NCBI RefSeq assembly: GCF_030028105.1
Contig: NC_092383.1
Location: 39,392,961-39,456,960, forward strand
Source: Mobula birostris
Lineage: Eukaryota
Direction: 5' to 3'
DNA length: 64,000 nucleotides
The notes below the pieces were generated by a model that was not told where the DNA came from, ran no database searches, and saw only the letters and a list, made by a program, of their open reading frames with translations. Below are positions 59,865 to 60,413 of the stretch, piece after piece; within the stretch, counting starts at the first letter, position 1, and every line of letters begins with the position of its first letter. The position numbers and the translations under genes are program-made.

Positions 59865-60413
59865 TTTTGGTCGCCGGCCGCTCAACCATAGTTTTCGGTC
59901 GGGCGCTGGACACTCAGAGAGATTCGGCTGGGGGCCGTGGGTGAGTGGTCAGCGACTTGGGCCGGCTCCCCCACCAGACTTAGTCTGGTGAGGAGGGTGT
60001 GAGGACACCCAGCAGGACTAGAGAAAACAAGACCTGACAAAGGGCAGATGAGCTCCTTGTGAGCCAACGGTCATCTTCCGTGGAAGAGATTAAAGCCTCA
60101 CCACATATCTACGAATTGTATGCTATGCACTTAGTTAGAAGAGAGATGGTGAACTTGGGCACTGCACCGTGTGCCTGGACCTGCCCAAGGCCTCCGCCTA
60201 AGGAAGGGCCGAGCTCGAAGAAGCGGCTGCAGCTGGAGGCTGGAATGGCCTCGGGCTCAAGTTCGGCAGGGGCGGTGGTGGGCGGTGCCAAGGCAGCCAG
60301 CGAGAACAAACTGGAGGAGAGGCTGTACTCGGTGCTGTTGGAAGATCGAAGAAGATGGAGGTGCATAGCCACCAACCCTGGATTTGGGGCGGCACCCACT
60401 GACTGACTGACTG
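59865..60413 (+). mobile_element. Non-autonomous RTE-derived retroposon with a captured host exon fragment
   Basis: 8-bp TSD gtgtaagg at 59857-59864 and 60414-60421; (ctga)n tail; RTE-like ORF start MVNLGT and end EDRRRWRCIATNP. Confidence 0.8.
60162..60338 (+). pseudogene. CYHR1: Circularly permuted fragment of the CYHR1/ZFTRAF1 first coding exon
   Basis: 60163-60196 encodes [11 protein letters not shown]; 60197-60338 encodes ...KKRLQ...[10 protein letters not shown]. The native order, from memory, is [25 protein letters not shown]. Confidence 0.85.

Follow-up and report, generated by a model that had tools for sequence, protein, structure and literature searches.

A permuted ZFTRAF1 fragment within a target-site-flanked insertion with likely RTE ends in Mobula birostris

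The window, that is, the whole stretch of 64,000 nucleotides analysed here, comes from Mobula birostris (assembly GCF_030028105.1, contig NC_092383.1, positions 39,392,961 to 39,456,960 of the forward strand). Near its right end lies an element of 549 bp (59865-60413) enclosed by a target site duplication (TSD) and a microsatellite tail, which interrupts an older LINE as follows:

59000 to 59856 (+): left part of the decayed host LINE, reverse transcriptase (RT) region, with an RVT_1 match and colinear with the LINE copy at 29943-30147
59857 to 59864 (+): left copy of the TSD, an exact 8-bp repeat
60398 to 60413 (+): microsatellite tail, (ACTG)4
60414 to 60421 (+): right copy of the TSD, an exact 8-bp repeat
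60422 to 61050 (+): right part of the decayed host LINE, aligned with 30145-30752 at 63% identity (618 columns)

The element is an insertion of 549 bp in a LINE fragment that continues across the site. The left flank (59752-59864) aligned to positions 30034-30147 of the LINE copy (78/112) and the right flank (60414-60533) to positions 30139-30255 (75/116), and the 9-nt overlap between the two placements is what a duplicated target is expected to leave. This was the only one of the seven window regions tried on which both flanks were adjacent, the other six being weaker and non-adjacent. The host LINE, which may be a CR1, retains a weak RVT_1 match at 59149-59469 (E 0.001, under the Pfam cut-off). 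The 8-bp TSD was the longest exact repeat in a scan of all placements near both element ends and would arise by chance with a probability of roughly 0.007 (21x21 placements). RTE LINEs generate TSDs of 7-15 bp (PMC6007223 supplement), and the 8 bp seen here fall inside that range, so that the repeat and the uninterrupted host LINE have the form left by target-primed reverse transcription. A T-stretch insertion signature has also been described (PMC6007223). Four T's (59865-59868) stand at the 5' edge of the element before its hairpin and may either belong to the element or be untemplated.

A preliminary description of this DNA, made from the letters alone, had reported a clean 8-bp TSD and a (ctga)n tail; the duplication was borne out exactly and the tail is present in another register. 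It had also considered the element young on account of its CpG content. The observed/expected CpG ratio is indeed higher in the element (0.57) than in its two flanks (0.15 and 0.25), but 12 of the 116 same-size bins of the window reach the same value, and CpG alone is thus modest evidence of youth. The element was present once, with no second copy within the 64-kb window.

Other parts of the window carry features of their own. A nearly intact RT frame of 685 codons (RVT_1, E 2.5e-7) followed by an overlapping frame of 311 codons occupies 17930-20414 (+); the RT frame is presumably Penelope-like, and the region is CpG-rich and hence probably young, with shorter relatives scattered through the window. 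A minisatellite with an 18-bp period, about 37 copies and a strong C skew lies at 5493-6170. The broken frames at 8356-9106 (-), with a CpG ratio of about 0.7, look like those of a hAT-type DNA transposase, and the CpG-rich segment at 39500-41700 (bins of 0.64, 0.70 and 1.06) is possibly the promoter island of a host gene.

The middle of the element is occupied by cargo of host origin, which is divided into two blocks:

60162 to 60196 (+): cargo block A, ZFTRAF1 residues 114-124; this downstream half of the source comes first
60197 to 60338 (+): cargo block B, ZFTRAF1 residues ~63-112, the upstream half of the source, placed second (start within about 6 nt)

By protein-level similarity, the cargo is a fragment of ZFTRAF1/CYHR1 lying in sense to the element. 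The closest ZFTRAF1 proteins, two matches among 114 candidates, were those of sawfish and skate (P0001 and P0002), and tblastn with these two placed the blocks in swapped order and in different reading frames. Block A was identical at 11/11 residues (60163-60195) to residues 114-124 of P0001 and 106-116 of P0002; by itself it reached an E value of only 0.026 window-wide, but it represents the protein stretch that follows directly on block B. Block B matched P0001 with an E value of 1.5e-14 and 33/49 identical residues overall, and its last 19/19 codons were identical to residues 94-112. The Ser/Ala/Gly-rich part of block B differs from the orthologue, and the same part also differs between sawfish and skate. 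The 30/30 conserved codons unchanged relative to sawfish (11/11 in block A and 19/19 in block B) fit a young copy. The parent gene of this fragment was absent from the 64-kb window, and the cargo has a G+C content of 66%.

Compared with these orthologues, the cargo shows a circular permutation in which residues 114-124 precede residues ~63-112. Its outer ends come together at codon 113, where no more than 3 nt are lost, and the order of the blocks is that of a circle of about 177-178 nt opened once, whose junction can be placed to about 6 nt; the permutation is read at the protein level against sawfish and skate rather than against the DNA of the host's own gene. The preliminary description had recognized the CYHR1 cargo and tblastn upheld it, but the circular permutation, the most telling feature of the element, had been missed. 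It had also named a flanking duplication of the cargo's own as a sign of later insertion: at the cargo ends only two 4-mers were found in 420 placements, where about 1.6 are expected by chance. Movement as a unit, as had been proposed, agrees with a TSD that encloses the element in full and with the absence of any cargo-specific duplication beyond chance.

The cargo is flanked by two segments that resemble the ends of an RTE LINE to different degrees:

59865 to 60161 (+): 5' part of the element, likely RTE 5' UTR with the first ORF codons (right edge within a few bases)
59869 to 59957 (+): 5'-terminal RNA hairpin of 37 pairs, 13 of them G-U (predicted fold)
60042 to 60065 (+): putative start of the conserved RTE 5'-UTR domain, the RTE half of Kojima's Ceph-domain (relaxed motif, offset 178)
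60339 to 60397 (+): 3' part of the element, likely RTE 3' end with the last ORF codons, GGCAC near the tail

A conserved domain sits in the middle of the 5' UTR of RTEs (Kojima 2018, PMC5786205), beginning at positions 129-201 in RTE-1_NV, AviRTE, RTE-6B_HRo and RTE-8_HRo (supplement of the same paper). A motif taken from Kojima's alignments gave no match in its strict form, and with two gaps relaxed it gave one match in 64 kb, at offset 178 of the element. The relaxed motif was not met in 200 shuffles of the window or in 20000 shuffles of the 5' part, whereas its core alone occurred 7 times in the window shuffles and 3 times in those of the 5' part; as the relaxed form was chosen after viewing the window, these figures flatter the match. 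Derivation of the 5' part from an RTE is supported at the level of a motif. For the 3' part, GGCAC ends 2 nt before the tail as it does, by eye, in RTE1_LA and RTE-1_OAf, a likeness of 5-7 nt that points weakly to an RTE. The RTE-derived ends of the preliminary description have accordingly held at the relaxed-motif level for the 5' part and weakly for the 3' part. Three short motifs sought in Kojima's supplement (PMC5786205) returned one unrelated match in the parts of it covered, and by eye the element showed no likeness to RTE 5' regions of the IdioSINE2/RTE-2_Croc, CoeSINE or WALLSI type.

The predicted fold of 59865-60160 was more stable than expected (z -3.97), and for the hairpin a z of -4.4 was obtained, with 0/500 shuffles equally stable, against -2.6 on the opposite strand. 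A long G-U-rich hairpin that is stronger on the element strand suggests a structure kept at the RNA level; A-to-I editing is one conceivable source of its G-U pairs. Four short hairpins cluster at 59961-60100 (z -3.1) and overlap the conserved RTE 5'-UTR domain. The 3' part (60339-60397) showed no significant fold (z -0.75). An HDV-like ribozyme fold is present in some RTEs (PMC6765202). Our own descriptor for this fold, uncalibrated on known ribozymes, gave 0 matches in the element and 0/60 in shuffles. A Pol III head was likewise not detected: ARAGORN predicted 0 tRNA genes, only A/B-box look-alikes with one mismatch to a presumed consensus were seen, and Rfam returned 7 sub-threshold matches, none of them tRNA, 5S or SRP. 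A head derived from tRNA, 5S or 7SL RNA, as in SINEs in the strict sense, is thus lacking. The label SINE-like, which had been suggested before, holds only in a loose sense, and for want of such a head the element is better called a SIDE or bipartite LINE.

The chimera is crossed by one open frame, which leads from the presumed RTE start via the cargo to the tail:

60146 to 60406 (+): chimeric frame of 86 codons, with ATG at 60146 and its stop in the tail (second in-frame ATG at 60125)

This frame contains 0 stops across 60146-60406, while each of the other frames contains 2. Read from its 5' end, it takes in the presumed RTE start, then block A in a frame other than that of the gene, then block B in the frame of the gene, and finally what is presumed to be the C-terminus of the RTE. 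The two translations reported in the preliminary description, MVNLGT and the C-terminal EDRRRWRCIATNP, are both present and lie in one common frame opened by the ATG at 60146. MVNLGT would represent the first residues of an APE domain, and EDRRRWR a LINE C-terminal motif. With the frames so assigned, such an open frame would arise by chance in an estimated ~8% of cases, a figure that combines two chances of one in three with a run of some twelve codons free of stops. Two Pfam matches to the chimeric frame were both sub-threshold and were disregarded. Taken together, the observations made in the preliminary description were confirmed and its interpretation was partly supported.

The closest counterparts of this architecture are the bipartite RTE LINEs RTE-N2_Lch, RTESINE1/2, WALLSI3 and Bov-A (PMC5786205), in which a 5' part with the conserved RTE 5'-UTR domain, seen in the element at motif level, is joined to a 3' end of ~70 nt, putative in the element, and which share with it a microsatellite tail, a TSD and the lack of a Pol III head; further bipartite RTE derivatives have been described (PMC4844689). 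The proportions match, RTE-N2_Lch having 214 + 70 bp (PMC5786205) and the present element 297 + 75 nt. Membership of this class finds agreement in two features, namely the RTE 5' region at motif level and the TSD with its mode of insertion. Unlike the elements covered in that paper, the present one carries a permuted host coding fragment at the junction and an open frame across it. R2Dwi_SIDE (PMC3414825) is similar in being internally deleted (529 bp), with LINE ends around a non-LINE middle of 197 bp, for which a template jump was proposed as one origin. It differs in belonging to the rDNA-specific R2 clade, in its ribozyme head and in a middle without known source, whereas the middle of the present element is a rotated piece of a host exon and no HDV-like fold was found in it.

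Amplified host exons are known from SVA_F1 (MAST2) and pt_SVA_D6 (STK40), non-autonomous retroposons with GC-rich exons in 84 and 94 copies, respectively (Damert 2018, PMC6139936). In these L1-driven families the exon was acquired at the 5' end by splicing and is colinear, whereas here the cargo is internal, permuted and probably RTE-driven, and a colinear spliced first exon is not what we find. In the AB->BA germ-line insertions derived from eccDNA (Zhang 2026), two source blocks are shifted cyclically and hardly any sequence is lost. At the protein level, judged against the sawfish and skate orthologues, the cargo likewise shows a cyclic shift over at least 95% of the source interval with at most 3 nt lost; the published insertions are lone, repair-type events near their source, whereas here the shifted module lies inside a TSD-flanked retroposon. 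Non-colinear gene order fixed in the genome is also shared with circRNA-derived pseudogenes (Dong 2016, PMC4897178), of which 33 copies from one circle are known in mouse (same paper). Their junctions are back-splices between exons, while the junction of the cargo falls within coding sequence and LINE ends enclose the piece. Each ingredient (bipartite RTE, exon-carrying retroposon and AB->BA insertion) therefore has a precedent, and the combination is unmatched in the literature searched. In that literature, which lies outside Repbase, Dfam, subscription journals and preprint supplements, we found no description of this element and no bipartite RTE with a permuted host exon for its middle. Among the publications listed that name ZFTRAF1/CYHR1 none dealt with this element, as judged by title or the beginning of the abstract, and the whole words RTE and SINE were absent from the available text of the manta genome preprint (10.64898/2026.10.27.761883), supplements aside.

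We also searched for further copies and for an autonomous partner. Protein searches for an RTE partner returned 0/2 candidates with the 5' frame, whose short length makes this a weak search, and with block B plus the 3' part, again a short query, 0/4 candidates for a partner or a chimeric ORF and 0 in 1.84 billion representatives; a protein atlas gave no usable match for the partner with a similarly short query. A metagenome scan gave 0 exact matches to a 20-mer of the element. A scan with peptide patterns, covering 21/64 parts of the metagenomes, produced at least two loci (L001, 2553-2741, and L002, 2241-2429), which were rejected as low-complexity chance without DNA likeness. When 58 words of the element were sampled in sequencing runs, 20 of the 24 rows listed contained some of them, the best with a share of 0.52. 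DNA runs of two organisms (A and B) reached 0.38-0.52 and one run of a third (C) 0.33, a reading that leaves out 11 listed rows below 0.2; no RNA run was among the matches listed. The shares computed for the parent exon alone, for the two ends alone and for a whole unit diverged by 2% are 0.21, 0.57 and 0.52, respectively. As the shares of 0.33-0.52 exceed the ceiling of 0.21 set by the parent exon, element-like sequence exists beyond the gene, and these shares fit RTE ends only as well as they fit a whole unit diverged by about 2%.

Our best explanation, which we hold with even confidence and no higher, is that this tailed and TSD-flanked insertion of 549 bp, with permuted ZFTRAF1 between likely RTE 5' and 3' ends, is likely a member of a non-autonomous family, the founder of which probably came about through template jumps of the RT; a bipartite non-autonomous RTE of the SIDE type is the best reading of its class. 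In the founder, an RTE reverse transcriptase would have copied about 75 nt of the 3' end of its own RNA and then jumped at codon 113 onto a ZFTRAF1 RNA, either a circle of ~178 nt or a linear fragment with bridged ends. It would have gone round this RNA exactly once and returned to the RTE RNA just past the start codon, so that the double jump deleted the ORF and inserted the cargo in a single step. The product would retain the 5' UTR for transcription and the 3' end for recognition by RTE protein; Pol II would transcribe it and autonomous RTEs would copy it in trans, the present copy having landed in the decayed LINE by target-primed reverse transcription. Bipartite RTE derivatives are expected to be Pol II transcripts (Kojima, PMC5786205), template jumps in vivo are documented for R2 (PMC3414825) and the crossing of open-ended structured RNAs by RT has been raised by Dong et al. 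(PMC4897178). As the cargo lies in sense, at the join between the presumed N-terminal and C-terminal codons, one event at the RNA level would explain the deletion, the insertion, the orientation and the position of the cargo. Against this explanation stand the single copy in the window, the failure to find an autonomous RTE and the unmatched strict 5'-UTR motif.

The main rival, which we consider rather unlikely, places the origin of the founder at the DNA level: a microDNA circle of ~178 bp from the CpG-rich coding exon would have been cut open a single time and joined into a break in a genomic RTE copy whose middle was lost during the same repair, and the chimera would then have been retrotransposed. 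The size, exon source and high G+C content of the cargo fit such a circle just as well, as microDNAs measure 100-400 bp and are enriched in exons and CpG islands (PMC9527254) and the cargo has 66% G+C. A circle cut once also yields exactly one round, and heritable AB->BA insertions occur in humans, where they made up 82/327 filtered insertions (Zhang 2026 preprint, 10.64898/2026.09.03.749254). This route would need a deletion of ~3 kb together with the capture, it leaves the sense orientation to a coin toss, and 78/80 intra-chromosomal human AB->BA cases lie within 10 Mb of their source (Zhang 2026).

The jumps or the capture may instead have taken place during this very insertion, giving a one-off chimera without a family. 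A single double-jump event would also leave a full 5' end, a 3' end and a TSD, only one copy is seen in the window and no listed run holds the whole unit; we nevertheless regard this as improbable. An origin of the cargo from a circRNA back-spliced through cryptic splice sites and copied into the element, as in circRNA-derived pseudogenes, seems very improbable to us. Non-colinear order is indeed the mark of such pseudogenes (PMC4897178), and the valine codon that follows block A in the parent begins with GT and could be a cryptic donor, but both sides of the circle junction lie inside coding sequence while known cases join annotated exon ends. The least credible proposal, to which we attach hardly any weight, is that a cargo-free bipartite element already present at this locus received the cargo afterwards, with a 4-nt duplication. 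One 4-nt repeat does sit near both cargo ends (60155 and 60338), yet the repeats there are at chance level and the insertion would need to have hit the 5'/3' junction exactly.

Beyond the template-jump explanation, the open frame raises a further reading that we think unlikely, in which the capture was selected. The element RNA would be translated as an RTE-ZFTRAF1 chimera of 86 residues through the frame running from the RTE start to the RTE stop, and this passage of ribosomes would have let the derivative outgrow its siblings, either by escape from nonsense-mediated decay or by delivering the 3' end to RTE protein being made on the ribosome. The fossil of a host-derived circle would then be a working part of the element at hundreds of sites in several ray species.

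Textbook mechanisms are unchanged by this finding. If confirmed, it would bear on how internally deleted LINEs gain their unexplained middles, as in the elements of Kojima (2018) and in R2Dwi_SIDE, and would test whether a mini-ORF aids the movement of such elements. Hundreds of false matches to the ZFTRAF1 exon may also lie in these genomes. Confirmation of the family would mean that a transient intermediate of a host exon, circular or looped, was frozen in the founder of a retroposon and then amplified. A deep consensus would then resolve its junctions to the single base, and they could be dated across rays; such a family would provide a clean case in which template jumping of an RT is separated from the capture of microDNA.
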